Positions 9,411-33,556 of a stretch of DNA of 64,000 nt are shown here, in pieces. A program made the translations under genes and the position numbers. The stretch's first letter is position 1; every line of letters begins with the position of its first letter. This DNA is from Candidatus Bathyarchaeia archaeon (lineage in GTDB: Archaea; Thermoproteota; Bathyarchaeia; Bathyarchaeales; Bathycorpusculaceae). Under the pieces are notes generated by a model. The model was given only the letters and a program-made list of their open reading frames with translations. It was not told the DNA's origin and did no database searches. Location: positions 1 to 64,000 of the forward strand of contig JBEKTQ010000021.1 in assembly GCA_049515895.1 (NCBI GenBank), in the 5' to 3' direction.

Positions 9411-9558
9411 GGTCGGGGATAGTCGGGATGGGTCGTTGCGAGTCGTATTGGGTCGCTGCGAGTCGCAGTGGGTCGAATGGAGTCGTTTTGGGTCGCAACC
9501 TGCAACCAATCCAAACCCCATTTCAAAGAAGCAACCCATTTCACAAAAAACAAATTTT
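9411..9558 (+). repeat. Anchor plus 10-bp array element (copy B, alternating GGTCG/AGTCG-N5)
   Basis: Nine in-phase RGTCG units from 9411; the ninth (9491) runs into GCAACCTGCAACCAATCCAAACCCC...CAAATTTT. Confidence 0.9.
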
Positions 9559-9620
9559 CTGCGACGAAAAACCGCAAAACCTGCCCTCAATCTTCTCGAC
9601 AAGATTTTCCTCGCGATTTT

Positions 9621-9758
9621 AGATTCTTCTAGATTTTTCTAGATGTTTCTAGATTTTTCTAGAGCTTTATAGATGTTTTTAGATGTTTCTAGATGATAGT
9701 TGAAGCCGATCCGAGCTCCAAACCAAGAAAGCAACCCAAAACACAAACAACAAATTTT
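9621..9758 (+). repeat. Anchor plus 10-bp array element (copy C, AGATKTTTCT array)
   Basis: Eight in-phase AGA-started units, a diverged core, then AAGAAAGCAACCCAAAACACAAACAACAAATTTT. Confidence 0.88.
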
Positions 9759-9805
9759 CTACCCAAAAAAAAGAAAATGAAGGTTGCACGCCGTAGCTTG
9801 TTCGC

Positions 9806-10468
9806 TCAAGTTAGTTTGGTGCCGCATTCGCCGCAGAAACTGGTGCTTGCAGGGTTTTTGGCTCCGCATTTGGGGCATACTTTCAATCCTAAGGGTGCTC
9901 CGCAGTTGTTGCAGAATTTGCCTGAGCCGGCTGGTTTTCCGCAGACTGGGCAAATTGTTTGTCTTTGTGTTATTTCGCCTGTGTAGACTTGGGTGGCTTC
10001 TGCTTTTTGTTTGATGTCCGCGACCATTTTTTCGGATCTGGCAGCAGCTACTTCGGTGCTTTCTCGTGGGGCGTCTTCTATGCATAGTCCTTCTTGTTCG
10101 TTCCAGTCGTTTTCGCAGACGTATTTGTGGCATCTTGGGCACCTGTTGAAGTGGCCTTTGGCTTCGTTTTGTGCAAGCTCAAATGCTTCTTCGTGTTCCT
10201 TGTGCCATTCCGGCGTCATGCCCTGAAATCGTTCACTCATGGCGTTTGCGCCTTGCTGAGCTGCATAACCTCCGCTGCCGCCCGCTAGTTGTGACCCTAT
10301 CGAAGCGACTTGGCCTATTCCTTTCCAGAATCCTCTTTTCTTGTAGGTTTTGCTTGCGATGAAGTTTGTTTTGTAGCCGTCGTTGCAGATGTCGCAGTTG
10401 AAAGTGAATTGGAATCCTGCGTCTGTGCTAAGGTCTTGATAATTTCGAGTAAATGGTTGAAGTGGCAT
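9806..10468 (-). CDS. Zinc-ribbon (double zinc ribbon) domain protein
   Basis: CDIC, CPRC...C and a C-terminal CPVC/CNNC/CPKC/CGEC set. Confidence 0.85.
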   Translation of the reverse strand: MPLQPFTRNYQDLSTDAGFQFTFNCDICNDGYKTNFIASKTYKKRGFWKGIGQVASIGSQLAGGSGGYAAQQGANAMSERFQGMTPEWHKEHEEAFELAQNEAKGHFNRCPRCHKYVCENDWNEQEGLCIEDAPRESTEVAAARSEKMVADIKQKAEATQVYTGEITQRQTICPVCGKPAGSGKFCNNCGAPLGLKVCPKCGAKNPASTSFCGECGTKLT

Positions 10469-10474
10469 TTTGTT

Positions 10475-10810
10475 TCATCTCCCTGTTATGTTTAGGGGTT
10501 TGCCGCATTTTATGCATTTCTCTCCGAGCGGCGGCTGTTCGGTCTTGCATTTTGGGCAAATTACTGTGAGTCTTTTGTCGCAGTTTTGGCAGTAGTCGCC
10601 GAAGAATGTGGGTTTTCCACAGTATGGGCAGTTTATTTGAAGTGTCAAGCCGCAGTTGCTGCATCTGACTTGGCCGGTTTCGATGGGGTTTCGGCATTTT
10701 GGGCATCTTTGAGGTCCTACTGGGTTAACTTTTCCACAGAAGGGGCAGACGTTATCATCTACAGAGACTAGTTTTCCACAGAATTTGCAAGGATGTTTGT
10801 AACCTGGCAT
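10475..10810 (-). CDS. Poly zinc-ribbon protein
   Basis: Eight CxxC motifs in 111 aa. Confidence 0.85.
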   Translation of the reverse strand: MPGYKHPCKFCGKLVSVDDNVCPFCGKVNPVGPQRCPKCRNPIETGQVRCSNCGLTLQINCPYCGKPTFFGDYCQNCDKRLTVICPKCKTEQPPLGEKCIKCGKPLNITGR

Positions 10811-12217
10811 TTATTGGTCTTCTCCTTTGCTCCATTTTTCGTTGTCATCTATGCTTTTGGCGTTGAAGGCTAATAAGCTAGCGACATCGGCTTTCCATTG
10901 TTCTATGGAAGTATGGATTACTCTGCCTACAAAAAGGTCTCTGGGGGTCTTGAGGGATGGGATTTTTGCTATCGCGAATCTATATTGAGTGTACCGCGTG
11001 CTTTCAAGCTGGTTTTCTGTGAGGTAGATGGGTTCTCTTCTGAAGTTGATTTCAATCATGGATCGGTTGATGTTTTTGATAAAATCTTCTAGTCTTTGGG
11101 CTAAATCCTCGTCTTTGGTTTGTGAATACTCTTTTCTTCCTGCTGCTCTGAAGAAATAAGTTGCTCCTGTTGCGGCGGGTTTTTGTTCTTCGTTTGAGCT
11201 TTGGTTGGTTTGTTCCACTGACTCTAAACCGGTGCTGTTGGTTGGTTGCCCTTTGCCATTTGTTGTTTTGTCTGATACGTTAAACGCTTCGAGGGCTATT
11301 GCATTGCTAAGTCTATTTGTTCCTGGGTTAAGCAGGGGAAATAGCATCCAAATGTAGGTTCCTGTCAATTCTCCCATAAGACCGCGTTTTATTCCTACGC
11401 ACACTTGATTTTTTGCAGCCAGTGAATTTAGGAACCCGTACTCCGTGGTTAAGCCTGCTTCATCGATTTTTTTTGTAAGTCGCCGCCAGAAGTCCGATGT
11501 TTGCTGTTCGATATCTTTTCTTTTTGCTGCTTTTCCGTCTCGCATTAGGGAGGCTATTTTGTTTATAGTGATGGGATTTGCCTCTGGGATTAGTTCTTTT
11601 ATGTTTTGTTGTGTTCTGAGAATCATTTTGTTTATTGCGTCAGAGAGGGCTTTTGCGAATGGATCGAAGTTTTGTCCGAGTAAAGTGAGCTCAATTTTTT
11701 CTAAGAATTCGTTTGTTATGATTAGTTTGTAGTCTTGTTTGTTTACATTGGTTATGTAGCAGTATGGGAGGCGGATGGGCTCGCTTTTTTGTGGCAAAAT
11801 TACGATTGCGGTGTCGTAGAGGCGGATTTCGCAGTTTCCGGATTGGGCTATCTGCTCATTAGGGTCAAGTTGTGCGTATTTTGCCTCGAAACCAGCTTGG
11901 AGGAGTGACTCTTCCATGAGTAAATATTTTAGCATGAGCTCATTCCGGAGCTTGTAGAGTTGGAAGAGGAAGTCTTCATATTGGTACCCTAACCCCCAAA
12001 GATTCAGTTTTTCCTTGGAAGTTAAGAAGAGGTCAATTTTATAGTCGTAGTCTGATATGCCGACGATGTCCGTGTACATGAATAGCATGGGTTCCCCGAA
12101 CATGACCGTCAGTGTAAGGTATCGTTCATCGAAGGTGGCTCTTGCTTCTCCTTCGTTCTTTATGTTTGACAGTTCGTCGTATAGTTTGTAATTAACTGCA
12201 ACTTCCATTTGTGTCAC
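10811..12217 (-). CDS. Hypothetical protein, possibly with PH-like domains; first gene of the zinc-ribbon operon
   Basis: 468-aa ORF abutting the next gene; two similar beta-rich segments each containing DYK. Confidence 0.7.
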   Translation of the reverse strand: MTQMEVAVNYKLYDELSNIKNEGEARATFDERYLTLTVMFGEPMLFMYTDIVGISDYDYKIDLFLTSKEKLNLWGLGYQYEDFLFQLYKLRNELMLKYLLMEESLLQAGFEAKYAQLDPNEQIAQSGNCEIRLYDTAIVILPQKSEPIRLPYCYITNVNKQDYKLIITNEFLEKIELTLLGQNFDPFAKALSDAINKMILRTQQNIKELIPEANPITINKIASLMRDGKAAKRKDIEQQTSDFWRRLTKKIDEAGLTTEYGFLNSLAAKNQVCVGIKRGLMGELTGTYIWMLFPLLNPGTNRLSNAIALEAFNVSDKTTNGKGQPTNSTGLESVEQTNQSSNEEQKPAATGATYFFRAAGRKEYSQTKDEDLAQRLEDFIKNINRSMIEINFRREPIYLTENQLESTRYTQYRFAIAKIPSLKTPRDLFVGRVIHTSIEQWKADVASLLAFNAKSIDDNEKWSKGEDQ

Positions 12218-12380
12218 CTTTTGTGATTAGTTATGCGTTAGTGAAATATCTAATTTTGCAAGATAGTCTGTGCGTTGCAACAAGGTAGGTTAGGTGGTAA
12301 ATTAGTGCTCGCGTCCTACCAACGCTCATGAGCTGTCCTCCTTCAGGGGAAATAGAACCGAGTACTCAACATAAACGTCA

Positions 12381-13082
12381 ATGAAAATAGCGCATCACAG
12401 GCTACGACGTCTAACACTTCAGAGTAACGTTTTTAGCGATGCTTCAGAGATAAAACTTGTAGAAGGCGCTTTTGTGTCTGGAACTCCGCTGGAAATCACG
12501 TTTGATTTTGCCAAGGCTGTACTCGCGCTTTTTATTATTGTGGATCCATTTGGCGACATCCCCATATTCATAAGTTTAACGGAGAATATGTCTGACGGGG
12601 AAAAACGAAGAGTGTTTAACACGGCCACTATCGTTGGTTTGGCTCTTCTTCTTGTATTCTCGATTACCGGGCAAGAGATTTTTGCACTTTTCGGAATTTC
12701 CGTCTACGGTTTCGAGGTTGCTGGAGGCATTCTTCTGCTAATTATTGCGATTAGAATCCTGATTTCAGGCACGCATGAGGCGACGGAGTCCCCTGAAAGC
12801 CTGGGCGCTGTGCCAATAGCTATGCCTCTCCTCGTAGGTCCGGGAGCCATCACAACCACGATATTGAACTTGCAATTTTACGGGCTACTTACAGCTGTGG
12901 GAGCAGCCGTAGTCGTGGTGCTAATAACCTGGGTCATTTTAAGATTCGTGGGTTCGATTTACCGAGTCTTGGGCAAAACGGGTTCACTTGTCATCGCAAG
13001 AGTTGTAGCGTTGCTGATCGCTGCGATAGCCACTCAATACATCTTGATTGGGATAATGCACTACCTTGTTCTGTCTCATTAG
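12381..13082 (+). CDS. MarC family integral membrane protein
   Basis: LFIIVDPFG.IPIF, AGGILL and AVPIAMPLLVGPGAITT motifs; the true start is probably ~30 codons downstream. Confidence 0.92.
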   Translation: MKIAHHRLRRLTLQSNVFSDASEIKLVEGAFVSGTPLEITFDFAKAVLALFIIVDPFGDIPIFISLTENMSDGEKRRVFNTATIVGLALLLVFSITGQEIFALFGISVYGFEVAGGILLLIIAIRILISGTHEATESPESLGAVPIAMPLLVGPGAITTTILNLQFYGLLTAVGAAVVVVLITWVILRFVGSIYRVLGKTGSLVIARVVALLIAAIATQYILIGIMHYLVLSH

Positions 13083-13225
13083 AACCGCAAAATCAGATTG
13101 TCGGCTTGGCAACCGCGCTACAGCATTCTACGCGCCGAGTAGTTTCTGCTCATGCAGAATAAGGTAATAAAGAAAACCTTGCCCTACGTGGGCAATCATG
13201 AAGTAGATTCGCGTGAGAGACGGCC

Positions 13226-13414
13226 TCATTCTGCACGTATGAGTAGAAGCGGTTTGGAAGCTTCTTTTTTCATTATTTTTCTTATTTCAACCTTATCGAG
13301 ATCTTCCGCAGTCTTCGTGGTCTCATCATGCGTATTATCTGGGAGAATGAGGTGAATCTCGCCATTTGGAGATTGTTCTCTAATTGTTCGCCAGTTTGGC
13401 AAACATATCACCAT
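13226..13414 (-). CDS. Small hypothetical protein
   Basis: 62-aa ORF with plausible composition, divergent from the candidate ncRNA. Confidence 0.4.
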   Translation of the reverse strand: MVICLPNWRTIREQSPNGEIHLILPDNTHDETTKTAEDLDKVEIRKIMKKEASKPLLLIRAE

Positions 13415-13660
13415 AGAATATACTCTCAGGCTCTTAACTTAATGTTTTTGGCGAAGTGTACTTTGCTTGTTTGCAAAGCAGGCATGCTTAGTTCTGTTTT
13501 CAGAAATAATTGCGTCATTCATGTCAAATTGACAAATTTATGTTAAAAGCTAATTTCACCACAAAAACCTCTTGGACTAAGTTAGCTGGGACAACCCCTG
13601 TTGGTGAGAAAGGAGTTCTTTACAAGACAAAAAACGCGTTCAATTGCCGATTTTTTGTAC

Positions 13661-13676
13661 AAAATTTGTTATATTT
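13661..13676 (+). promoter_or_regulatory. Putative BRE/TATA promoter of the structured ncRNA
   Basis: aaaatttg-TTATATTT ends 22 nt upstream of the first base of the closing stem (13698). Confidence 0.5.
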
Positions 13677-13697
13677 TACCAATACTATTAGAATGGC

Positions 13698-14013
13698 GTA
13701 GGTTGAGGAGCACGCTTTAAAGGCGATGTATCGAGACAAAGAGCGTACCAGTTAAAACAGCGGAAAACTGGTATGCGACTAAGACTCTGTTTCGATGGGC
13801 TGAACATTGGACGCAGTGCATTGAGGCAATGAGCGTGTCAGTCAAAACAGCGAAAGATTGATACGCGGCAAAGACAAGGCTTCGATGGGCTGAACATCAC
13901 TATATGTTGCAGTGAGGCAATGAGCGGTGCAGTCAAAACGGTGAAAGACTGCACAGCGACAAAGACATAGCCTCAATGGACCGCGAATATGTTAAGGCTT
14001 AGACTCAACCTAC
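13698..14013 (+). ncRNA. Unrecognised structured RNA: three tandem ~90-nt units inside a terminal stem with a bulge-helix-bulge motif
   Basis: Terminal inverted repeat GTAGGTTGAG/CTCAACCTAC; units at 13729-13803, 13819-13893 and 13910-13984 have conserved loops and compensatory stem changes; G-U pairs indicate the + strand; a pyrimidine tract follows at 14015. Confidence 0.8.
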
Positions 14014-14322
14014 ACTTCTCTTCAAAACAACTTAAACAACATCATTCTTGGTTCAGGAAAATCACGTTTCCTTCTTACGTTTAGACAATCAGCAATCTAA
14101 TTCTTAATTTACAAGCAGCCTTCAAAGAATTGTTAAAGAATTTGAAATCGAGTTGTATGGCGTAGCGCTGTTTAACGGCGCAAGGCTATTTTTTACTAGC
14201 TAAGAGTAGGTGGTTATGTGGTACGGATTTGGTTAAGATTTGAGTGCAAATCTGGAATATCGATTAATAATCTGTCGCTAAGAAGAAATTGAAAACTTCA
14301 ACACATAAGGGAGGCTCGAAGA

Positions 14323-14565
14323 ATGAAGCAAATACAGGTGTATGTATTGGATTTAAACAAAATAGATGGACGCGGAGATTTTTTATGTCCAAGATGTGGA
14401 AACGAAATTTCTCCTGACGACCCCACTGAAACGGCTTATTCCATTCTTGAAGCAATTGTCAGCAACCACGGTTTGGATGAAATAATAATTCGCTGCAACA
14501 AATGCGAAAGTGAACTCCATTTAACTGGTTTTTCTCTGCTGCAAAAACTGAGCGTACACTTTTGA
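14323..14565 (+). CDS. Small zinc-finger protein
   Basis: GGAGG RBS; DFLCPRCG.EISPDD...IRCNKC.SELHLTGF. Confidence 0.8.
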   Translation: MKQIQVYVLDLNKIDGRGDFLCPRCGNEISPDDPTETAYSILEAIVSNHGLDEIIIRCNKCESELHLTGFSLLQKLSVHF

Positions 14566-14730
14566 CCCCCTCAAAAGAGGCGGAAAACTATGCAAAAATC
14601 CCTTCAAAAAAATAGAAGTGAAAAAACACAAAAACCTAACTGGGAATGCCCTGAAAAGCAGAATGCATCTTCGGGAGCCTATGTTAATCACATTTAGAGA
14701 GCAGACATGAACCAGGAAAAGCACGAGCAG

Positions 14731-14902
14731 AAAAGAACGCAAGTAAACGCGAAAGAACTGGGAAGAACGGGAAACAACGCGAAAGCACGGGAATCAACGC
14801 GGTGGAACGGGAGGAAACGGGAAAAGACTGGAAAAAACGTGACCTGCAGAAGGTCCAAGCTCTGAACAAGAAAAGCAATCTGAAAAGAGCTTCGCAAGTT
14901 TT
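14731..14902 (+). repeat. Anchor plus 10-bp array element (copy D, GAAAnAACGS array)
   Basis: Eleven in-phase units, then ACGTGACCTGCAGAAGGTCCAAGC...AAAAGCAATC (diverged anchor). Confidence 0.82.
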
Positions 14903-15060
14903 GTGTTCGTCCCTGGGCAACTTTTCTTCACAAGGAGACAAAAAAATCGCCGGAAAAGCACCTCTGACGCACGTTCTTGAATCTTCGATTTTTGACGGTA
15001 TTTGACTTGGGTAATGTTAAACGACGGTGGTGGCCATCTATTGACTTTTGTTGACGTTAG

Positions 15061-15217
15061 GACTTTAGGAGACTTTACCAGACGATGGAGGACTTTGGGA
15101 GACTTTGGCAGACGATGGCGGACGATAGGAGACTTTAGGAGACGATAGGAGACGCAACCTGCAGCTGATCCAAGTTTCTCCACAAAAAAGCAACCCAAAA
15201 CACAAACAACAAAATTT
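15061..15217 (+). repeat. Anchor plus 10-bp array element (copy E, GACKWTRGGA array)
   Basis: Nine units all starting GAC, then GACGCAACCTGCAGCTGATCCAAG...AAAGCAACCCAAAACACAAACAACAAAATTT. Confidence 0.9.
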
Positions 15218-15341
15218 GGAGCGAAAGAATAAACTTGCAAACTTGGCGACTACCGTTTTCCTTCGCAACCTGCTTTTGGCGTCTTTTAAGAAGGAAAGAG
15301 AAATAAGCAGACGCGCCACCAATATTTTTTGTTTTACAAAG

Positions 15342-15902
15342 GTGATTTATGCGTCTTCGAAAACTCAAGTAAACATATCCTCAGCAACCCGGCTTCTTCA
15401 TCCGATGCACATAGTGTTGGTTTCATGTGTCGGGAAAGCGGGTAAACCCAATATAACAACGCTTGCATGGGCGATGCCGACCTCAATTAACCCGCCGCTT
15501 GTAGCCATCAGTCTGGCGCCAACACGGCATTCACACGCACTTATTGAGGAGTCGGGCGACTTCGTTGTGAATATTCCGACGTTGGAGATTCTTCAAGCCG
15601 TCTATGCCTGCGGTTCATTAACGGGAAGAAGCTTTGACAAATTCAAGAAAACAAACCTAACCCCGATTGCCGCTAAAAAAGTTAAAGCACCAGCGATACG
15701 CGAATGCGTAGCGCACCTTGAATGCACGGTAGAAGATAAATTCACCACGGGCGACCACACGGTTTTCGTCGGAAAAATAGTCGAAGCCTATGCTGACCTA
15801 GGCGTCTTCACCGAAACCTATGACTTGAAAAAGGCTCGCATGCTCTACCATCTGGGCGGCAACAACTTCGCAGTGCTTGATCCCAAAACCTACAAGCCCT
15901 AA
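15342..15902 (+). CDS. Flavin reductase-like FMN-binding protein
   Basis: KPNITTLAW.MP.SINPP, FVVNIP, ECVAHLEC and GDHTVFVG motifs; start uncertain. Confidence 0.9.
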   Translation: MIYASSKTQVNISSATRLLHPMHIVLVSCVGKAGKPNITTLAWAMPTSINPPLVAISLAPTRHSHALIEESGDFVVNIPTLEILQAVYACGSLTGRSFDKFKKTNLTPIAAKKVKAPAIRECVAHLECTVEDKFTTGDHTVFVGKIVEAYADLGVFTETYDLKKARMLYHLGGNNFAVLDPKTYKP

Positions 15903-16003
15903 GGCTATAACGGTGGAGCTTTGTTTGCGGGGAACCCTTTGTCAGCGGTTACGCATTTAAGCTTCTACCGCGTAATCCCAACACAGCGAAAAAGTGAGCA
16001 GCA

Positions 16004-16909
16004 ATGGCCTACGACAGGGAAGAAATTGAAAAATTCCGTATTTCCGGACGAATTCTGCGCGAAACAAGAGAGGAAATGAAAGCCAATGTTAAAGAAGACA
16101 TGTTAATAATCGATGTCTGCGAAAAAGCCGAGGCGCTAATCCGAGCTAAAGGAGGCAAACCAGCTTTCCCCTGCAACGTAAGCATAAACGAGGTAGCAGC
16201 GCATTACACTGCGACGCCAAACGATACGTCACGGATTCCTCAAGGCTCCACCGTTAAGGTGGACCTCGGAGTGCAAGTAGACGGCTACGTCACCGACACC
16301 GCGTTCACTGCATGCTTTAACCCTGAGGGCAGGGCAATGGCTAACACGGCGGAGGCAGCTTTGAAAACAGCCATCGAAAACATCCACGGAGACATGGCGC
16401 TCGGTAAAATCGGAGGCTTAATAGAGACCACTATTAGAAACCGCGGGTTCAAACCCATCTCGAACCTCACAGGGCACTCGGTTGGAAGATACTTGATTCA
16501 CGCCGGAACGTCTATTCCCAACGTAGCTCAACCAGTATCGCTTACCAAAGTCAAAGTCGGAGAAGTCTACGCCATTGAACCATTCGTTACTTTACCAGAC
16601 GCCATTGGCCGCGTTGACGATAGCCCGCAGACAACCATTTACCGCCTGCTTAAAGCGAAAGCCGTCAAGACGGAATCTGCAAAAAAACTGCTCAAGCACA
16701 TCGAGGCTAATTTTAGGACATTACCTTTTGCTGAAAGGTGGCTAATAGGGGTTGTTCCCAAAGAGCAACACGGCGCTGCCTTCAAGGAGCTGCTTTCTTT
16801 AAAAGCAATAATGAGTTATCCCGTTTTTGTTGAAGTGAGTAAGAAACCCGTTGCCCAAGCTGAACACACTGTGCTCCTAAACGAAGAGAGCTGCGAAGTT
16901 TTGACTTAG
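16004..16909 (+). CDS. map: Methionine aminopeptidase, type II
   Basis: AFPCNVSINEVAAHYT, KVDLGVQVDGYVTDTA, NLTGH, AIEPF and AQAEHTV motifs. Confidence 0.96.
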   Translation: MAYDREEIEKFRISGRILRETREEMKANVKEDMLIIDVCEKAEALIRAKGGKPAFPCNVSINEVAAHYTATPNDTSRIPQGSTVKVDLGVQVDGYVTDTAFTACFNPEGRAMANTAEAALKTAIENIHGDMALGKIGGLIETTIRNRGFKPISNLTGHSVGRYLIHAGTSIPNVAQPVSLTKVKVGEVYAIEPFVTLPDAIGRVDDSPQTTIYRLLKAKAVKTESAKKLLKHIEANFRTLPFAERWLIGVVPKEQHGAAFKELLSLKAIMSYPVFVEVSKKPVAQAEHTVLLNEESCEVLT

Positions 16910-16918
16910 GCGTTCAAG

Positions 16919-17179
16919 ATGGCAGCCTATGAAGACTCAATCTTTTACGAACCGAAGAACATTGACGATTTAAGGGGATTTCTGAAAACTAACAAAGAGA
17001 AGTACCATGAAATTTGGATCGTCCTAATTAAAAAGGAGAAGGCCAACCCTCAGCCTGTATCTTTCAACGAAGCGGTCAGTGAAGCGATCGCGCAGGGGCT
17101 TGTTGATAGCCGAACAAAGACTTTAGACAATAGCAGGTATGCAGTTCGTTTCACAAAAAGAAAAAACAAGCTAAGTTAG
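16919..17179 (+). CDS. YdeI-like short protein (N-terminal domain only)
   Basis: EIWIVLIKK...VSFNEAVSEA...GLVDS....LD..RYAVRFTKR resembles the YdeI/OmpD-associated N-terminus. Confidence 0.6.
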   Translation: MAAYEDSIFYEPKNIDDLRGFLKTNKEKYHEIWIVLIKKEKANPQPVSFNEAVSEAIAQGLVDSRTKTLDNSRYAVRFTKRKNKLS

Positions 17180-17631
17180 ACATTGTATTTCTTTTCCTTA
17201 TCTTTGACTTCCTTGTATATCGCAGTTATCATTTGCTTCCCAGAGCATTTTTGACATGGCGCATCAAGTTCCTTGTAGACGAAGTCTCCGCGTTGGAATT
17301 CTCGCACTGTTTTGGCGTCACAGCCTACGCTGCTGCATCCAATGGTTGTCATTACTTTTGGGATTTCAATTTTCATTTCTGATATTTGCCTCCTTGATTG
17401 CAAAAGCGTGAAAGAAGACATTGAAAGGGCTATTGCGCCAATTACGGCAAGCACTCCTGCGGCTGAGTAATCGCCTGATTGGGTTGAGCCGGTGGCAGTG
17501 GTTCCAGAGTAATATAGATTGGCCGCCAGTATGAGCGCTATTGCAGCAAGAGCCATCACGGTCACGACGATCATGGTTATGTAATTTGAGATTTTTTTAG
17601 TGGATGCTGATGCTTGGTCATTTTTTGTCAT
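17176..17631 (-). CDS. Membrane protein with C-terminal Zn-ribbon-like domain
   Basis: Two TM helices, then C....C...VREFQRGDFVYK....CQKC....ITAIY. Confidence 0.75.
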   Translation of the reverse strand: MTKNDQASASTKKISNYITMIVVTVMALAAIALILAANLYYSGTTATGSTQSGDYSAAGVLAVIGAIALSMSSFTLLQSRRQISEMKIEIPKVMTTIGCSSVGCDAKTVREFQRGDFVYKELDAPCQKCSGKQMITAIYKEVKDKEKKYNV

Positions 17632-17645
17632 TCAATTTATCCTCC

Positions 17646-18815
17646 TTATTGTCCGACTCCGATAGAGTTGCCAACACCGACAATTATGATTCTGTCGCCT
17701 TCCTTGGTTCTCTCTAAGACCACGCTTCTAATCCTTTCAATGGCTTTGTCTACTGCATCGTTGATTTCCTTGCGCAGGGGTGAAACCGCGTCCCCGATGT
17801 CTTCCTTGATTATTATCGCGTAGTTTGGAATCTTGTATTTTGTAAGTTTCTCTTCAATCTTGTACTGGTCAACGCCTGGGCCGCCGATTGCCGCGCCGAT
17901 TCCTTCTGCAACTTCGCCGACGTCTTCGCCCTCCAGCTTTAGACCTGCATCAATCATGATAACGGTGGCGATTTTGCCTTCATTTTCTTCGATGACTGCT
18001 TCAACAGCGTCGCCCGGTTTCCCGACGTTGCCGCCTGGGCCTTCAGCTTTTATGATCATGGCTGTGCGTCCTGCAAACGGAACTGTTGCCATGACGCAGT
18101 CTTTTTGCAGTTTGCGGGTTTCGTATCCATGCATGAGTTTTGCCGCTATCAGTGGGCCTGCTCCGTCGCCGATAGGTTCTCCATAAGCGAATGCTTTGAG
18201 TGCGCTGGCGTATGCTTCGGCTTCTTTCATGACCATGGGCAATATCATTTGTAGTTGCATTATTACGTATAGGCTTAGGGTTTTTTTGCCTTGTATGTAA
18301 TAGTGTCTGACCACTTTGTAGATGAAGTTTAACGCCATTGCGGCTTCCAAAGTGTTCTCTAAATTGTTGACTTGGACTTCGTCGCTTGCTGGCGCCATGA
18401 GTTTAACTTCATCTTTCATCCTCTCGTCCCTGACGTCAAGGATGTGATCAAGCTTGTAAACCACTCCGGCCGGATCCATGTTTTGGGGGCCAATCGTGAA
18501 GTACTCTAAGAAGCGGTCGACACGAGCAGAAGGGTCAGCGGTTGGTTTGCCGATTTCTTTTATAGCTTCTATAGTGACTTTCCGACCTTCCTCTTTAATG
18601 TACTTAAGTTTATGAAGAGAGTTCTCCACCTCACGAATCATAACGTACATTTGGATTCTTTGACCATAGAAAATTAGAACTATGAAGAACACGTATGAAA
18701 GCAGGCTCAGGTAGGTTAGCCATGTGTTTGAACCGCCGCCGAGTTGACTTGCGTGTACCGGCAGCGCTAACGACATTACCCGCGCAAATGCGGCGCTCAC
18801 TGGAATAAGACTCAA
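17646..18815 (-). CDS. DUF1512 family protein
   Basis: PIGDGAGPL, KAEGPGGNVGKPG, IDAGLKLEGE, GAAIGGPG and a C-terminal GVGNSIGVGQ. Confidence 0.85.
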   Translation of the reverse strand: MSLIPVSAAFARVMSLALPVHASQLGGGSNTWLTYLSLLSYVFFIVLIFYGQRIQMYVMIREVENSLHKLKYIKEEGRKVTIEAIKEIGKPTADPSARVDRFLEYFTIGPQNMDPAGVVYKLDHILDVRDERMKDEVKLMAPASDEVQVNNLENTLEAAMALNFIYKVVRHYYIQGKKTLSLYVIMQLQMILPMVMKEAEAYASALKAFAYGEPIGDGAGPLIAAKLMHGYETRKLQKDCVMATVPFAGRTAMIIKAEGPGGNVGKPGDAVEAVIEENEGKIATVIMIDAGLKLEGEDVGEVAEGIGAAIGGPGVDQYKIEEKLTKYKIPNYAIIIKEDIGDAVSPLRKEINDAVDKAIERIRSVVLERTKEGDRIIIVGVGNSIGVGQ

Positions 18816-18896
18816 CTATTACACCACTTCTCAAAAACAATTAAATCTTAGTTATAAAGCTATGCCAAATCTACCCGCAAAATTTTAGGATGAAAA

Positions 18897-19021
18897 GTGG
18901 CTGCCAGCTTTCCCAGGTTCACGTGGCCTAAGACCACACTACAGCTGGAAACGGAGCACGGTTTAACTTCTGAGTTCGGAATGGGATCAGGTGGAACCCG
19001 TGCCCTTTGACCGGGAAACAC
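18897..19021 (-). rRNA. rrf: 5S ribosomal RNA, unlinked from 16S/23S
   Basis: Minus strand contains CACCTGATCCCATTCCGAACTCAGAAGTTAAACCGTGCTCCG and ends GGGAAAGCTGGCAGCCAC; length ~120 nt. Confidence 0.93.
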
Positions 19022-19099
19022 AGGTTTTCTGATGATTTCTTGGAAGCGAAGAAAATTTAAGGGAAGCAATCGCAATAAATTGTTAGCGGGATCAAAGGG

Positions 19100-19705
19100 A
19101 TGCTTGATTCAGGAAAAGCTGGAAATCTACGAAGGGCCGGATTGACGGGTATATTAGCACCTATCCTTGCGTTCAGCTGCATACTATTATCCATAGCATC
19201 GTACCCGAACTTTAGCTGGACAAACAACGCTCTAAGCGATTTAGGCGTGGTAACGGGCATAACTGGACCACTTTTCAATTTTGGAATCTACACCAGCGGT
19301 TTGTTAGCTCTCAACTTTGCTTTGGCTGGCTTGTTTACCTATCTTAAGAAAAGTTTGGTTGGAAAAGTTGGAGCTTTGACCTTTGCGGCGGCAACAGTGG
19401 CGCTTATCGGCATAGGCGTTTTTAATGAGAGCTTTTCTGGAACGCACTACGCCTTTTCTGTAGCGTTCTTTGTTTTGGCGCCCATTTCACTATTTATTAT
19501 TGCGTGTGCGTTTGTGCTGGAAAATCAAGTACGGCTGTCTGTTTTCACGGTTTTGACTGGGATAATTGCTGCTCTGCCGTGGATATTGTTTTTTGCGATT
19601 AATTATGTTGAGGGCGTAGCTATTCCCGAAACTGTGTCGGGACTTGCTGTTTCGGTTTGGGCGATCACACTTGGCTACAGAATAATGAAACATGCAAAGC
19701 GCTGA
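19100..19705 (+). CDS. DUF998 family membrane protein
   Basis: FSWTNNALSDLG motif, GVFNE...H and VAIPE; multiple TM helices. Confidence 0.85.
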   Translation: MLDSGKAGNLRRAGLTGILAPILAFSCILLSIASYPNFSWTNNALSDLGVVTGITGPLFNFGIYTSGLLALNFALAGLFTYLKKSLVGKVGALTFAAATVALIGIGVFNESFSGTHYAFSVAFFVLAPISLFIIACAFVLENQVRLSVFTVLTGIIAALPWILFFAINYVEGVAIPETVSGLAVSVWAITLGYRIMKHAKR

Positions 19706-20716: not shown

Positions 20717-20814
20717 CCTAAGAATTCTTTGCCTCGCTTAATAGTGTAACGTCCAGTTCTCGGCATTACTCAATTTCCAGGTTTGCTAGTGATTTAGCAC
20801 GTGGAAAATCCGGC

Positions 20815-20942
20815 AAAATTTGTTGTTTGTGTTTTGGGTTGCTTTGCTTGTTTAGGGCTTGGATTGGCTGCAGGTTGCGTCTAAAAATCTCCCCAAATCT
20901 CCCAAATTCTCCTTAAATCTCCCGAAATCTGTAAAATTCTCT
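20815..20942 (-). repeat. Anchor plus 10-bp array element (copy F, GGAGATTT array)
   Basis: Minus strand: agatttcggg agatttaagg agaatttggg agatttgggg agattttta, then GACGCAACCTGCAGCCAATCCAAGCCCTAAACAAGCAAAGCAACCCAAAACACAAACAACAAATTTT. Confidence 0.9.
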
Positions 20943-23619: not shown

Positions 23620-24597
23620 ATGACTAGATTCCTTTCATGCGGGGAACTTTATGAAACGATTCAACAAAAATCCCTAGAAGCTAAAGAGATTCTATGGGTA
23701 TGTTCCCCGAATCTTGGATTGGACGCGCACAAAATCTTCTCCCAAGAGATCCTAAAGAATCCTCCAGCAGATATTCGATTTGTTTTCAGAGTTGACGATG
23801 CCACGGTCAAGAGAGGCGAAGTCAATCCCTATGAAATACAATATTTCTCGGAGCATTTCAATGGCAGCAGCATCAGGACACATGAAAACTTTCATTCGAA
23901 CATTTACATTTTCGACCAATCCGCATTAATCACATCAGCAAACATGACAAAAACCGCTTTTGAAAACAACATTGAAGTTGGAGTCCTGATTGAAGGGTCA
24001 GAAGTAGATGAAGTAAAGAGCTTCTTTAATCAAAGTCTGTGGACACACGCAAAAACGATAAACGACTTAAAAAGATACAAGCAAGCATGGAACATCGCCC
24101 AAAAAACTTGGAAAAACAGTAATGTGAAAAGAGCCAAGCCTCAAACGGCAATCAGGGATTGGACCAACGATTATACCAGAACTTGGTATATAGGTATCCT
24201 CAATCGAGTGTCGTCAAAGAATGAGCGCAAGATAAAGAAAGAAACAAATTGGCAACCTGAACTCTCGCTAGCGGGTGACATCGGTTATAATTGTTTTAAG
24301 GAAATCAAGCTCGGCGATTTAGCCTACGTGATTGACTTAAGCAAGAAACGCGGAAAGATAGAAATTGAATTAGCACGGGTATTTGACAAAAGCAGGGTAG
24401 AAACGGATCAGGGCGACCTTCATCTTGCCTACGAAATAAAAAACTGCTACTCAATAGAGAGGCAACAATTCTATGAAATGTTGGAAAACTCAGATATTAA
24501 GTCTAGAAGTTGTGAAAAATTACTTGATGAAGATCAACTAATGCAAATTGCCAATACACTTTCCTCAATCAAACGTAAACGGAAACCTAAACGATAG
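23620..24597 (+). CDS. Phospholipase D-like (nuclease-type) domain protein with altered HKD motif
   Basis: CSP, FHSNIYIFD..ALITSANMT..AFENNIEVGV. Confidence 0.8.
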   Translation: MTRFLSCGELYETIQQKSLEAKEILWVCSPNLGLDAHKIFSQEILKNPPADIRFVFRVDDATVKRGEVNPYEIQYFSEHFNGSSIRTHENFHSNIYIFDQSALITSANMTKTAFENNIEVGVLIEGSEVDEVKSFFNQSLWTHAKTINDLKRYKQAWNIAQKTWKNSNVKRAKPQTAIRDWTNDYTRTWYIGILNRVSSKNERKIKKETNWQPELSLAGDIGYNCFKEIKLGDLAYVIDLSKKRGKIEIELARVFDKSRVETDQGDLHLAYEIKNCYSIERQQFYEMLENSDIKSRSCEKLLDEDQLMQIANTLSSIKRKRKPKR

Positions 24598-24740
24598 CAA
24601 TTTTTGTTCTTTGTGCTTTTAGATTGCTTTCTTTGTTTGGGGCTTTTATTGATTGCAGGTTGAGTCAAAAAAAGTCAAAATTAGTCAATAAAAGTTAAAA
24701 TAAGTCGAAAAAAGTCAAAATAAGTTCAGAAAATTCGAAA
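24598..24740 (-). repeat. Anchor plus 10-bp array element (copy G, TTTTGACTTW array)
   Basis: Plus strand tgagtcaaaa aaagtcaaaa ttagtcaata aaagttaaaa taagtcgaaa aaagtcaaaa; minus-strand anchor GACTCAACCTGCAATCAAT...AAGAAAGCAATC..AAAGCACAAAGAACAAAAATT. Confidence 0.85.
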
Positions 24741-24824
24741 AATCTTTCTCAGAATTAGGTATCGAGAACTGAATAATAACGATGAATAAACTGATAGGAT
24801 CTGCTAACAAAGAAACATTCATTT

Positions 24825-25931: not shown

Positions 25932-26067
25932 TTCGTTGTTTTCGTCAGCTTTAGATGAAGCCGTCTTATTTCACCAGTGCCTTTCCAAAAGATTGGTGTC
26001 TAAGTGATATATGCTTTTTCTGCTAAAGGCATTTGATTTTGGGTTCAATTAACTGTTTCATAGGACT

Positions 26068-27778: not shown

Positions 27779-27869
27779 AGTTGCAGCGGAAAACTTATCT
27801 GTGAAGCAACTGTGAATTGCATGGTTAAACGAAAACTTTAGGCGCACGTGAATCGAGGTGAATTGAAAA

Positions 27870-28166
27870 ATGGTTGAAACGAAAACTGTTGAAATGAAGG
27901 TTGACGCGTCAGAACTCAAAGGCGACAAGAAGGACCTGGTTTCGAAGCTGTCAGATTTCCTCAAGGACAAAACAGGCGGAGAAGTCTCCTTAGCATCGGA
28001 AGTTGTAACAATTAAAGGCCAAGGCGAAGCCTTAAGCAAAAAGTACATTCGGGTTACGGTGAAAAAGTTCTTGCACAAGCATGAGCTAACAGAGCAGTTC
28101 AGAGTAATCGGCGGCGAAGAGAACCTACTAAAAGTTAAAGAAAGAGTAACGGGCGAAGAAGACTAA
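27870..28166 (+). CDS. rpl22e: Ribosomal protein eL22-like
   Basis: FLKDK...LSKKYIRVTVKKFLHKHEL...FRVI parallels eukaryotic eL22 FSKRYLKYLTKKYLKK..LRDWLRVV. Confidence 0.75.
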   Translation: MVETKTVEMKVDASELKGDKKDLVSKLSDFLKDKTGGEVSLASEVVTIKGQGEALSKKYIRVTVKKFLHKHELTEQFRVIGGEENLLKVKERVTGEED

Positions 28167-28297
28167 ATTCCTTCCTTTTAAACTTATATTAATCAAATTT
28201 TTCTTGGTTCAAAGATCTTGAGAGCGCAACCTGTACTATTATGTGAACAGCTTGTTCTAATGCGTAGCATTAAATCAAAAAACGCCATTTCTAAACA

Positions 28298-28504
28298 TTG
28301 CACAAGCAGGCGGGAGATTGGAACTTGAGCCACAAAACCATCGCCGTAAGCACGGCAATTATCGTTATTTCACTCGTGACTTTGACCGCGCTCTTTGCTG
28401 AAACCTACGCCACGCTGCAAAATATTAACCCCGTAGCCGCTTTGGCAGCCGTAGCAGTCGTATTAATAGGTTTAGTTTGGTTCAAAAAAGCATGCAAATC
28501 CTAA
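28298..28504 (+). CDS. Small two-TM membrane protein
   Basis: Two hydrophobic helices and a basic tail. Confidence 0.55.
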   Translation: MHKQAGDWNLSHKTIAVSTAIIVISLVTLTALFAETYATLQNINPVAALAAVAVVLIGLVWFKKACKS

Positions 28505-28529
28505 AAAGGAAAAAGTAGAAAGAAGCAGT

Positions 28530-30974: not shown

Positions 30975-31909
30975 TATTGTGCCTCCTTTAATGCAGGGAA
31001 TCTTTTTTCGACTGCAATGCGCCTGCTTTCACCTGCGATGGCGCGGAACTCTTTTGCTGCGTCAGCTGGCGAGGTCATTCTCTCTAAAGCTTTGTTCCAT
31101 GCGCCAGAGCGGATGGGCGTGTGGTGCACTGTTGTGCGTTTAACTGTCAGTGCTTCAGGAACGGGACAAACGTTTTTGCATGCGCCACAGTAAGTGCAGA
31201 ATAAATCGTTAACGTGAACTTTCTTGTCTTCTCCAAGCGTTAGCGCGCCTGGAATGGGGCAAACGTCGAGGCAGTCTTTGCAGCCTTCGGGACATTTCTC
31301 TTGAGCAATGGCGATTATTCCTTCGAAGGCTTTCTTGACATTTATCACGCCTGACCCACATTTGAACTCGCATACTCTGCAAGTTGGGCAATAATCCTTC
31401 TGAATGTTAAGGTTAACTTGAATACGTTTTCTGAAGCTGGGAGATAGGTCCGCTGTGTTTTCTACCGGTTTGCCGTCAAAACCAACTTTAGAAACCGTAA
31501 TTAGCCCAAGTGGACAAGCCGTTTCGCATTCAACGCATTCTTTGGGGCATTGTGCAGTATCCACTTTTATGTCGCGAACGAGTTTTGGGTAGCTGTCTTT
31601 CGCCAACAAGGAAAGGTCATGGTTTCCATTCAAAGTGACCTTGATTGCGCCGTAGGGGCACGTGACGTCGCAGATTCCGCAGAAATTACATTTTGCCAAG
31701 TCAACGTCGACTTTGGCTTTTTTAGTTTTTTCGCCCGCGGTCTTAGGCTGCTTTTGTGTCGTTATCGCCTCTTTAGGGCAGGCTAATGTGCATATTTGAC
31801 ATCCGACACAGCGTTTTTTGTCAAGGGTTAATTTGTAATTCTTAACTTGCAAACCCCACTCTATCGTCAAGGCATCAGCCGCATCTTTCTTTACGGTTTT
31901 AAACGGCAT
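30974..31909 (-). CDS. Polyferredoxin (FwdF-like)
   Basis: Six CxxCxxCxxxC(P)-type motifs; stop overlaps the hdrA start. Confidence 0.85.
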   Translation of the reverse strand: MPFKTVKKDAADALTIEWGLQVKNYKLTLDKKRCVGCQICTLACPKEAITTQKQPKTAGEKTKKAKVDVDLAKCNFCGICDVTCPYGAIKVTLNGNHDLSLLAKDSYPKLVRDIKVDTAQCPKECVECETACPLGLITVSKVGFDGKPVENTADLSPSFRKRIQVNLNIQKDYCPTCRVCEFKCGSGVINVKKAFEGIIAIAQEKCPEGCKDCLDVCPIPGALTLGEDKKVHVNDLFCTYCGACKNVCPVPEALTVKRTTVHHTPIRSGAWNKALERMTSPADAAKEFRAIAGESRRIAVEKRFPALKEAQ

Positions 31910-32152
31910 ATCTTTACCACCAAGAGCCCCATTCACACCGAACAGACGGTGCTACATCAACCAACAGGCTATTTGGAAGGAATTGCAGCGCTTTTGATAT
32001 AAATATTGCTTGAAAAAAACCGTCTTTTCTACGGTAAAAAGAAAAAAATAGAGCTTTGCGACTGTAACAGGCGTTATTGCTTGCTTTCTTGCTGGTTTAG
32101 CTTCCTTGCAATGTTTAAATTCAACGTTTACAATTTATCTGAAGGGATTATT

Positions 32153-33334
32153 ATGGCAAACTCAATTTCTGCCGAAGATGTATGTTCAAAAAGCTTTCGA
32201 AGCGTGCAGGAGAACGATCCGCTTTCCCGATGCTTAGAAGCCTTTGAAAAAGGAATGCTTCCTGTCTTAGCTGTCTTGAACGATAAAGGCAAGTATGCAG
32301 GCATGATTACTCGCCGCGCGATTTTAAGATCAAGACTTGACCTCAACGCCACTAAAGTTAAAACGCTGATGAAGACGGCTCCGCCAGTGACTCCTGATTT
32401 TTCAGTGAGCAAAACGGCCAAGTTGATGATTGAAAGCGGGTTAAGGCAGCTTCCGGTTCTTGAGAAAAACAAGCTTTCGGGTTTCATCACTGACGAGAAC
32501 ATTATTCATGCGGCGGTGGCACAGGAGTGGGGAAACACCAAAATAGAGACGATCATGACCCGAGCACCACACACTCTTGAAGCTAACCGTTCTGTTGGAG
32601 CGGTTCTTAGCTTAATGAGGGAGTATGGTATTTCGCATGTTCCAATCATTGATGGCGGAAAACTCGTGGGCATGATTAGCATTGAAGATATTTTAGAGAA
32701 TATCTATTGGCCGCAGAGGCGCCAGACAACGGGGGACATAGTTGGCGAGAAGCTTGAAACTTTGAGCGTTCCAGCTAAAGGAATAATGAGTAGGCAGGTG
32801 GTCACTGTTGAACCACAGACAAGCCTGCGTGATGCCGAGAAAATGATGCATGATCATGACGTTTCCTGTTTAGCAGTTACGTCTAACGAGCGCCTGGTCG
32901 GTGTTGTGACGAAGCTTGATTTTCTTGAACCGATTAGCCAGCTAGAAACCGTTGAACGCAAATTGTCGGTGCAGTTCGGTCTTAAAGATTTGGAGATCAC
33001 GCCTGAGCAGCAAGCCTTCATGATGGATGAATTCGATTCTTTCACACACAAGTACCAGGAAGCCTTCCAGTTAGGCACACTCTTCGTATACATGAAAAGC
33101 CACGGCAACACAAACCTGCGCGGAACACCCATGATCCACTGCCGCCTCCAATTCAGAACCGTCAGAGGCACATTCTACAGCGCAAGCGAAGGCTGGGGCA
33201 TTGAACCCACATTCAGAGTGGCCTTAGACCGCCTCGACCGCAGATTACTGCGAAGCAAAGAATTGCTGGCATACAACCCAAGGTACGCGCGGGATTACCT
33301 GCGTAAAATCGGGTTGCCACAAGAAGAGAGCTAA
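32153..33334 (+). CDS. Four-CBS-domain protein with C-terminal HPF/RaiA-like domain
   Basis: CBS motifs (LRQLPV, ISHVPII, VGVVTKLD); the C-terminus ...IHCRLQFRT.RGTFYSASEGW...FRVALDRLDRRL fits an HPF-like fold. Confidence 0.8.
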   Translation: MANSISAEDVCSKSFRSVQENDPLSRCLEAFEKGMLPVLAVLNDKGKYAGMITRRAILRSRLDLNATKVKTLMKTAPPVTPDFSVSKTAKLMIESGLRQLPVLEKNKLSGFITDENIIHAAVAQEWGNTKIETIMTRAPHTLEANRSVGAVLSLMREYGISHVPIIDGGKLVGMISIEDILENIYWPQRRQTTGDIVGEKLETLSVPAKGIMSRQVVTVEPQTSLRDAEKMMHDHDVSCLAVTSNERLVGVVTKLDFLEPISQLETVERKLSVQFGLKDLEITPEQQAFMMDEFDSFTHKYQEAFQLGTLFVYMKSHGNTNLRGTPMIHCRLQFRTVRGTFYSASEGWGIEPTFRVALDRLDRRLLRSKELLAYNPRYARDYLRKIGLPQEES

Positions 33335-33369
33335 TTCCATCCCTCTTTCTTATGGCAAAGACTTAGGTA

Positions 33370-33556
33370 TATTTTTGTTGTTTGTGTCTTGTGTTGCTTT
33401 GCTTGTTTAGGGCTTGAAGCGTTTGCAGGTTGCGACCCACAACGACTCCCTTCGACCCATTGCGACTCGTAACGACCCAATACGACTCGTAATGACCCAT
33501 CCCGACTATTCCAGACCTTCCCGTTTTTTCGCGTTTTTTAGCGTTCTTTCCCGTTA
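33370..33556 (-). repeat. Anchor plus composite 10-bp array element (copy H)
   Basis: Minus strand: GAAAAAACGS units, then nine RGTC(G) units, then GCAACCTGCAAAC...GCCCTAAACAAGCAAAGCAACACAAGACACAAACAACAAAAAT. Confidence 0.9.

Follow-up and report, generated by a model that had tools for sequence, protein, structure and literature searches.

Background

The repetitive extragenic palindromic sequences and bacterial interspersed mosaic elements (REP/BIME) of enterobacteria are dispersed extragenic mosaics that contain a palindrome and often lie at gene 3' ends or between convergent genes. Plasmid centromeres (parC/ParR), omega heptads and iterons are phased direct-repeat arrays bound by cooperative proteins, and cassettes organised around recombination sites are known from shufflon sfx, integron attC and dif. 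Here we set against these systems a modular repeat found in a 64,000-nt stretch of DNA from a Candidatus Bathyarchaeia archaeon (GenBank assembly GCA_049515895.1, contig JBEKTQ010000021.1, positions 1 to 64,000; hereafter the window). Each of its eight copies in the window, A to H, joins an array of 10-bp tandem units to a conserved core and tail, and the combination of array and tail differs among copies, probably through homologous exchange between them.

Few of the abundant Bathyarchaeia have been cultured, and annotation of their non-coding DNA is all but lacking. No description of this repeat family was found in the literature, where the text matches listed for the 10-mer core (10 of 69) came from unrelated papers on other subjects; the family is apparently undescribed and files under dispersed intergenic repeats that evolve by gene conversion. 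The available text of PMC3691661 describes archaeal nucleosome positioning by 10-bp A/T repeats offset from G/C repeats, and the portion of PMC6136690 that was available states that Bathyarchaeota encode histones. Borg tandem repeats are presented in the accessible part of PMC9879509 as features of the extrachromosomal elements of Methanoperedens, with virtually none in the host.

Results and discussion

Arrays and tails are discordant among copies A, B, F and H

The element consists of 4-12 tandem 10-bp units, an in-phase junction of the form xxC-GCAACCTG-CA and a tail of about 55 nt. Eight copies were detected in the window with a core+tail profile trained on the five window copies that have the exact core plus a tail (E values 3.8e-18 to 1.6e-4; next match E = 0.016). 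The four copies at issue here are as follows, with the first base of the junction trinucleotide given as the junction coordinate.

Copy A, 3544..3664, plus strand, junction 3594: GAGATTTnnn array 3544-3593; GAC-GCAACCTG 3594-3604; type 1 tail 3605-3664.
Copy B, 9401..9562, plus strand, junction 9492: GTCG-type array with a 20-bp superunit, 9401-9491, first unit of AACGGGAAAG type; GTC-GCAACCTG 9492-9502; type 1 tail 9503-9562.
Copy F, 20810..20941, minus strand, junction 20881: GAGATTTnnn array 20882-20941; core 20871-20881; type 2 tail 20810-20870.
Copy H, 33367..33557, minus strand, junction 33436: four AACGSGAAAn units 33518-33557; GTCG-type array 33437-33517; core 33426-33436; type 2 tail 33367-33425.

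The first-pass annotation had reported that the arrays of B and H match unit by unit, variable positions included, with 9 differences in 90 nt, that the tail of B is closest to A and that of H to F, and that A and F share another array type. Ungapped comparison of 9411-9500 (plus strand) with the reverse complement of 33428-33517 reproduced the count exactly, and the unit-by-unit match was borne out by the arrays alone (9/80 mismatches). At positions 15-66 after the junction, the tails of B and H differ at 20/52 sites, as against 5/52 for A and B and 8/52 for F and H; the remaining differences are 12/52 (A-F), 19/52 (A-H) and 13/52 (B-F). The arrays of A and F are both GAGATTTnnn and are 68% identical in register over 60 nt. 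As B and H share one array type and A and F another, while the tails pair A with B and F with H, all four combinations are present, as had been claimed.

At the array mismatch rate, 20 or more differences between the tails of B and H would arise with a binomial probability of 3.6e-7, and the identity of these tails lies at the 5th percentile of all family pairs. The tails of A and B form a clade in the maximum-likelihood (ML) tail tree of 57 columns (Shimodaira-Hasegawa-like approximate likelihood ratio test, SH-aLRT, 94); a clade of F and H tails was neither shown nor rejected by topology tests. The array of B derives from the H array lineage: it is closer to that of H than the latter is to the same-type array of locus L032 in another genome.

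Distances to outgroup copies suggest which combinations are older. The tails of two GAGATTT copies from another metagenome-assembled genome (MAG), L013_2310 and L017_2305, differ from those of A and B at 15-18/52 sites and from those of F and H at 21-29/52. Conversely, the tail of the GTCG copy L032 differs from H and F at 7 and 9/52 sites and from A and B at 21 and 22/52. This points to GAGATTT with type 1 (A) and GTCG with type 2 (H) as the probable older combinations, with B and F as the two reciprocal recombinant types.

The longest exact strings common to window copies measure 17 nt (B-H), 19 nt (A-B) and at most 31 nt overall. Because these are too short to cause mis-joins with the usual k-mers or long reads, assembly error is an unlikely source of the combinations.

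The repeat in other Bathyarchaeia genomes

Species-representative genomes were scanned with a pattern of 20 fixed bases that included the core, and 44 loci were returned. Eleven MAG records of Candidatus Bathyarchaeota/Bathyarchaeia contributed 39 of them, all 39 with a tail after the matched core, and 2 of the 39 with at most one array unit. The remaining 5 loci lie in unrelated bacteria and lack an array; by our arithmetic about 5 would be expected by chance. None of the loci is the window itself; the closest matches to it among them have 70-89% identity over the elements and 69.5% in one gene.

The window and the 39 loci together yielded 74 profile matches; an in-phase array of at least 2 units stands before 71 of them, and one of at least 4 units before 66. 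Same-strand tandem clusters of two or three copies are common, each copy with a different array type, and the copies found secondarily include variant cores. Array types recur across MAGs (GTCG in L032, GACTTwTTTT in L008, GAGATTT in L013 and L017) and are therefore heritable rather than newly made at each locus. These results show that the eight window copies belong to a modular intergenic repeat specific to a lineage of Bathyarchaeia-type archaea.

Array and tail histories are nearly independent across the family

Array identity and tail identity were uncorrelated over 1,326 pairs of copies (r = 0.04), with 1 of the 53 copies dropped for lacking 60 nt upstream. Pairs whose arrays are at least 85% identical have tail identities ranging from the 5th to the 100th percentile, and tails that are 89-91% identical were found beside unrelated arrays. 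Mean identity in register was 0.39 for arrays versus 0.73 for tails.

Array and tail histories were compared by mapping 14 array classes on the ML tail tree (57 columns, 49 labelled rows; 4 rows with fewer than 3 units were left unlabelled). Array class is placed almost at random on this tree: it changes 29 times, versus a minimum of 13 under perfect congruence and 32.9±1.2 when labels are shuffled. Tail identity was slightly higher within genomes (0.765) than between them (0.728; permutation p = 2e-4).

Exchange points and mechanism

Homology between copies ends at several places within and around the element. Whole elements have been copied with sharp ends: L002 and L025 have identical tails in unrelated flanks, and L013 and L021 are alike from -93 to +71, with tails 98% identical and flanks again unrelated. 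Other blocks have an edge at the core, as in B/H (alike from -91 to +14), A/B (+2 to +71) and L007_2056/L035_2056, which are alike from +1 to +89 despite different arrays. An edge in mid-tail is seen in L012_2262/L020_2056, where near-continuous identity begins at about +37 (position 37-40), and L034 and L015 share array and distal tail yet differ in a patch at positions 14-20. L005 and L039 share the rpl31e flank (90.8% identity over 2,061 nt), but near-continuous identity begins about 85 nt past the junction; their array types differ and their tails are alike at family level only. Tail-end edges occur in L005/L039, L002/L025 and L013/L021.

Recombination is also recorded inside the tails: of 630 pairs of informative sites, 451 contain all four gametes, and compatibility is greater between neighbours than between distant sites (0.624 vs 0.717±0.028, p = 4e-4; a test resembling the pairwise homoplasy index, PHI). 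A census of block ends by local alignment was discarded as dominated by generic tail-to-tail similarity; the pile-up of ends at the core therefore mainly marks the edge of a conserved module rather than points of exchange. The core boundary is also partly trivial, because homology must end between differing arrays and like tails.

The pattern bears the marks of patchy gene conversion and concerted evolution. The first-pass annotation had placed an exchange at or near the core, as a site-specific recombination site or by patchwise gene conversion. This is borne out in part: array and tail histories are separate, and patchwise conversion fits the data. The site-specific recombination site is not supported, since breakpoints are scattered over core, mid-tail and tail end, an outcome that the annotation had itself named as speaking against it.

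Our best reading, to which we assign a probability of about 0.62, is non-allelic homologous recombination or gene conversion among dispersed copies, seeded in the conserved core and tail. Dispersed copies would trade segments by either route, with exchange tracts that would start or stop in core and tail because unlike copies share no other homology. Shared unit types could provide the other tract edge, for example the AACGGGAA unit in which the B-H match ends on the left, and arrays may also change through duplication of 20-40 bp blocks.

Several observations weigh against this reading. Two of 300 label shuffles reach 29 or fewer changes on the tail tree; some co-inheritance of array and tail therefore remains, and the two trees are nearly rather than wholly independent. 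The approximately unbiased (AU) test does not reject a clade of B and H tails (p = 0.316) or one of B, H and L032 (p = 0.37), and the test is underpowered, as 57 tail columns give it little power. The discordance among the four window copies therefore rests on the rate argument and not on topology, and that argument assumes similar rates in arrays and tails, with few whole-element pairs to calibrate it. A and F share a unit type but, unlike B and H, no unit-by-unit correspondence. For the call of parental and recombinant types, each type has one or two outgroup copies to go by, taken from two other genomes. To convert an array, homology is also required to the left of it, and this is mostly absent; B and H show only a 10-nt shared unit there. 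Finally, because the seed pattern contained the core, core invariance is inflated by ascertainment and, in the cross-genome set, is partly present by construction.

Other origins of the mosaic pattern

A single reciprocal crossover, homologous or enzyme-mediated, in or near the cores of two inverted copies is a possible but doubtful origin of copies B and F. Acting on an H-type copy at the B site and an A-type copy at the F site, it would invert 9,503-20,870 of the window and create B and F together. The two are reciprocal combinations of the parental types suggested by the outgroups, and they lie on the plus (B) and minus (F) strands, an arrangement in which tails are swapped when the cores cross over; as they are inverted relative to each other, one crossover near the cores could have made both, with one event instead of two. 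The junctions differ, however: B switches within the first 14 positions, whereas F keeps the A/B-like CCAATCC through positions 15-21 and resembles H only from about 22 onwards. The pairs also differ in age, given arrays 68% identical in A and F and tails about 90% identical in A and B. GC/AT skew over the proposed inversion follows gene orientation only and is uninformative on this point.

Mobility of the element itself is rather unlikely. A non-autonomous element, similar to miniature inverted-repeat transposable elements (MITEs) or REP/BIME, would have its core and tail recognised by a putative mobilising enzyme, and chimeras would form by template switching or nested insertion during copying. 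Such an origin would suit the near-identical, sharp-ended whole elements in unrelated flanks of one genome (L002/L025, L013/L021), the many copies per genome, their tandem clusters and enrichment at gene 3' ends, and the different elements held at equivalent positions across MAGs (after carB in 3, after rpl31e in 2). Terminal inverted repeats are nevertheless absent in 5 of the 6 window copies tested, the exception being copy B, whose outer ends coincide exactly with an 11-nt inverted repeat of 91% complementarity (9393-9403, 9555-9565). Inspection found no target-site duplication at the ends of L002/L025 or L013/L021, the element has no hairpin, and there was no match in phage or plasmid collections. 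No transposase was present among the 128 open reading frames (ORFs) scanned, which comprised 56 in the window and 72 flanking the elements in the 39 loci of other MAGs; nor was a gene resembling the REP-associated tyrosine transposase (RAYT) seen among the ORFs scanned. Most copies are old and diverged, and identities of 0.39 in arrays and 0.73 in tails suggest constraint rather than recent bursts.

It is very unlikely, and not supported by our observations, that a dedicated site-specific recombinase acts on the core as its crossover site and shuffles array and tail cassettes in the manner of shufflon, integron or dif systems. The core is indeed a short, highly conserved junction where modules of different origin meet, several homology blocks begin within 1-2 nt of it, and all four array/tail combinations exist. 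Yet dyad-symmetric arms are missing, the five copies compared giving only 6-nt palindromes (CTGCAG, AAATTT, TCTAGA), none common to all. No integrase, resolvase or transposase family (Pfam) was found in the 56 window ORFs or the 72 flanking ORFs. Breakpoints also occur in mid-tail and at the tail end, with a recombination signal inside the tails, and the blocks that seem to start at the core dissolve on inspection, as in L005/L039, where identity begins about 85 nt past the junction.

It is highly improbable that no exchange occurred, with the B and H arrays alike through selection by one binding factor and tail types mere noise at a few saturated sites, or with the combinations arising as assembly chimeras: although short tails and the 451/630 incompatible site pairs make homoplasy plausible, the AU test cannot reject B+H and MAG assemblies can break here (L009 ends 20 nt upstream of a junction), selection on a motif does not predict that B and H agree unit by unit at array-variable positions (9/80), the B-H homology is sharp-ended on left and right, type 1 and type 2 tails differ by multi-base motifs common to same-type copies in another genome, and the strings shared by window copies (at most 31 nt) are too short for mis-joins.

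Anatomy of arrays, junctions and tails

The array unit type varies by copy, with more than 12 types in the family, and has the general form G-A-C-n-W-W-W-n-n-n. Across 444 units from 64 arrays, positions 1-3 carry G (62%), A (61%) and C (84%), and these positions are the best conserved within arrays. The A/T fraction is 0.25 at position 1 and 0.10 at position 3, versus 0.81-0.84 at positions 5-7. The junction trinucleotide equals the consensus of its own array in 43 of 66 arrays.

The best autocorrelation lag (range 5-44) was a multiple of 10 in all 36 arrays of at least 7 units, and Tandem Repeats Finder (TRF) gave periods of 10, 20 or 30 for the window arrays. An 11-bp spacing gave 0 pattern matches and was rejected; the true period is 10. 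Superperiods showed no preference among the 36 arrays (20 bp, n = 11; 30 bp, n = 10; 40 bp, n = 10; 10 bp, n = 5). Units separated by two to four steps resemble each other slightly more, on average, than neighbouring units do, which suggests that arrays grow by duplication of multi-unit blocks. A recent expansion is found in L044, whose array has eight perfect TCCTTCCTTG units (1879-1958), compared with diverged units in L010, its paralogue in the same MAG.

Tails are composed of 52% A, 25% C, 14% T and 9% G, versus 28/22/28/22 in the window. A run of at least 5 A is present in 63 of 72 tails, corresponding to at least 5 T on the opposite strand. RNAalifold predicted a consensus secondary structure of 0 pairs across 53 copies. 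At Rfam gathering thresholds only a 5S rRNA gene was matched in the window, the element region being unmatched, and the best sub-threshold match over copies B-C reached 25 bits against a cutoff of 197. With no consensus pairs, Rfam match or tRNA, a structured RNA was rejected. A coding role was likewise rejected, as the 7 ORFs crossing arrays or tails had no Pfam match at E<=0.01.

Remaining copies and related motifs in the window

The exact core GCAACCTG occurs 8 times in the window, versus 2.47 expected, and none of 100 shuffles reached 8. Five of these occurrences belong to elements; those at 15265, 24252 and 28226 have no array or tail. Copies C, D and G have variant cores. All eight copies are confined to the first 34 kb of the window and lie outside Pfam-supported ORFs. 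The other copies, and a remnant, are the following.

Remnant upstream of A, 3405..3457, plus strand: four AACGSGAAAn units and a partial core AAC-GCAACC, without a tail; resembles the array of copy D.
Copy C, 9620..9762, plus strand, junction 9692, in tandem behind B: GATnTTTCTA array 9620-9691; variant core GAT-GATAGTTG 9692-9702; tail 9703-9762.
Copy D, 14726..14884, plus strand, junction 14836: AACGSGAAAn array of 11 units, 14726-14835; variant core AAC-GTGACCTG 14836-14846; shortened tail ending at about 14884.
Copy E, 15021..15221, plus strand, junction 15151: 'head' 15021-15060; GACTTT/GACGAT array 15061-15150; core 15151-15161; tail 15162-15221.
Copy G, 24596..24746, minus strand, junction 24666: GACTTwTTTT array 24667-24746; variant core GAC-TCAACCTG 24656-24666; tail 24596-24655.

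Units of the copy D type, AACGSGAAAn, lie directly upstream of the arrays of A (3405-3457), B (9402-9411) and H (33518-33557), and one lies upstream of the L032 array in another MAG (about 1919-1928). Because these units recur beside other arrays, arrays can be compound, and exchange may find its left-hand homology in such a unit.

Just upstream of GACTTT/GACGTT arrays lies a conserved 'head' of about 40 nt, shared by the copies of this kind. In the window it is that of copy E (15021-15060), and elsewhere it occurs in L013, L017, L021, L027, L029, L039 and L040. It contains a GGTGGCCACC-like palindrome preceded by a TATA-like TTTTATnTTAA, and the head of copy E contains GGTGGCCA, which is conserved in same-type copies of other MAGs. 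The head is a left end specific to the subfamily, and could be a promoter or a binding site.

A looser second core-like motif, without array or tail, is located 80-115 nt past the cores of B, E and F:

9574-9583: GCAAAACCTG.
15265-15272: exact GCAACCTG.
About 20777-20786: GCAAACCTGG.

A similar AAAACCTG is present at 19021-19028, two bases ahead of the 5' end of the 5S rRNA gene.

Gene context and possible function

Gene context was assessed for 45 clusters with crude gene calls, made greedily from ORFs of at least 110 aa. On the array side, 25 clusters face the 3' end of a same-strand gene and 9 the start of a divergent gene. Within 700 nt on the tail side, 22 clusters face a same-strand start and 18 a convergent 3' end. 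The next tail-side gene is convergent in 20 of the 45, and in 13 of these 20 the tail ends at most 80 nt from the stop. Within the window, the tail of G abuts the stop codon of the convergent ORF 23620-24597, the tail of H ends 34 nt from the convergent CBS-domain ORF 32006-33334, and copy F lies 97 nt upstream of the radical-SAM ORF 19706-20716.

The neighbours are ordinary housekeeping genes, and no par or rep genes adjoin the elements. An element is present at the 3' end of carB in three MAGs (L008, L010, L024), with three array types and in both orientations, at that of rpl31e in two MAGs (L005, L039) and at that of EF-2 at two loci of one MAG (L020, L034); element clusters also lie upstream of rpl3 and rpoB. 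These recurrent gene ends point to long-term occupancy of the position with turnover of the element.

Genes in the window have ordinary TATA-like and Shine-Dalgarno-like motifs upstream, as judged by eye. TATA-like 8-mers are scarce in tails: each 10-nt bin has them in 1-8 of 64 elements, against 9.8 expected. Their enrichment is only about 1.5-fold at 20-50 nt ahead of arrays, and a comparable peak follows tails at 45-75 nt. A promoter was rejected on the TATA-poor tails, the enrichment upstream of arrays and after tails being weak and not decisive. A 5' leader was also rejected: the tail-side gene is convergent in 20/45 clusters, and the ATGs that follow the tails of L023 and L044 open no ORF of at least 100 aa.

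The exact one-turn period is kept over unrelated unit sequences, which argues for a role at the level of the double helix, by bending or by cooperative or wrapping binding. With G/C at positions 1 and 3 of the unit and A/T at 5-7, the array would offer, for instance, a bent or protein-wrapped platform on one helix face. The tail supplies oligo-T runs on the opposite strand, and the elements lie mostly at gene ends. Judged from sequence and position, an intergenic boundary or terminator-side element may fit better than a promoter or a structured RNA, at low certainty. We tentatively suggest a helically phased DNA-level element at gene boundaries, whose tail may be able to terminate opposite-strand transcription. 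Two results speak against this suggestion: the 30-bp modulus expected of histone dimers, which we rejected, is absent from array lengths, which show no preference for its multiples, and from superperiods, and 22 of 40 typed clusters precede a same-strand gene, so that an opposite-strand terminator has no obvious client there.

A more far-reaching and improbable idea is a new class of archaeal cis-element, in which a conserved anchor (core+tail) bears an exchangeable, helically phased docking array. Were this true, every array type, of which there are more than 12, would have a DNA-binding factor or chromatin state of its own as reader. Arrays would be redistributed over loci by recombination at the anchor, which would sometimes invert the intervening DNA (possibly 9.5-20.9 kb here), and the four-gamete pattern would be the trace of a natural system of cassette exchange by which intergenic boundaries are rewired in Bathyarchaeia.

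Other features of the window

Genes in the window include an HdrA-MvhD fusion, TrmB and DUF1512, all archaeal. A 1,206-aa fusion on the minus strand (45571-49191) combines CheB methylesterase, CheR methyltransferase, PAS domains and a histidine kinase. The sole Rfam match in the window is a stand-alone 5S rRNA gene (18899-19018, minus strand, 65 bits), and no tRNA genes were found in the window.

Three further kinds of repeat were noted. A 261-bp tandem repeat of about 3 copies, 79-89% identical, occupies 18-793 within the minus-strand ORF 3-1853, which has an Ig_3 domain and probably encodes a repetitive surface protein. Repeats of 12 bp of the AACACCAACTCC type, rich in Asn/Thr/Ser in frame, are present at 7138-7212 and 23195-23412, in ORFs 5468-7663 (Invasin_D3, CarboxypepD_reg) and 21754-23529; from their sequence they appear to be paralogous low-complexity linkers in putative surface proteins. 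A 90-bp tandem repeat of 2.6 copies, 76% identical, lies at 13733-13967 in a 1.2-kb stretch without a listed ORF of at least 80 aa.

The elements may also have practical consequences for sequence data. In the one instance noted, L009, the contig ends inside an array, 20 nt short of the junction at 2253, and L031 and L038, contigs of one MAG, overlap by 2.2 kb at 99.95% identity; the repeats may break or duplicate assemblies. Several spurious ORFs of 80-150 aa cross the elements, which may confuse ORF callers.

Comparison with known systems

Like REP/BIME, the family is dispersed, extragenic, multicopy, homogenised within genomes and often placed at gene 3' ends or between convergent genes, a mosaic of a conserved motif and variable neighbours. 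It differs in having no palindrome or stem-loop (0 consensus pairs, no shared inverted repeats), in a variable part that is a strict 10-bp tandem array and in its archaeal host. From MITEs it differs in that a terminal inverted repeat is found in 1 of 6 copies (B only) and no flanking duplication at the two recent copy pairs.

Plasmid centromeres and iterons share with it direct repeats of about one unit per helical turn beside a fixed core, with a system-specific unit sequence. The Bathyarchaeia element, in contrast, is chromosomal and present at dozens of loci with more than 12 unit types in one lineage, and it has neither adjoining par/rep genes nor a plasmid or phage match. As in recombination-site cassettes, a short conserved sequence joins modules of different origin and all combinations are seen, but dyad symmetry is absent, the 128 ORFs scanned include no recombinase and breakpoints are scattered.

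The nucleosome rule, as set out in the available text of PMC3691661, may resemble the array in its 10-bp periodicity and in A/T-rich positions offset by about 5 bp from G/C. Relative to that text, the units are near-exact tandem copies rather than a statistical bias, and their G/C lies at single positions 1 and 3, not in dinucleotides (PMC3691661). Array lengths and superperiods of the element, moreover, do not favour multiples of 30 bp. Borg repeats, so far as the accessible part of PMC9879509 describes them, are likewise archaeal, intergenic, fast-changing tandem direct repeats, whereas the arrays described here all have 10-bp units and are anchored to a core and tail in chromosomal housekeeping regions (PMC9879509).

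The family is relevant to the part that dispersed repeats play in gene conversion and rearrangement of these genomes. Its strict one-turn periodicity, its many unit types, its conserved anchor and its modular exchange make it a tractable handle on the intergenic organisation of these archaea, including chromatin or protein docking, termination and boundaries. While it fails a defining feature of each, it resembles REP/BIME, iteron and centromere arrays and recombination cassettes in single respects.

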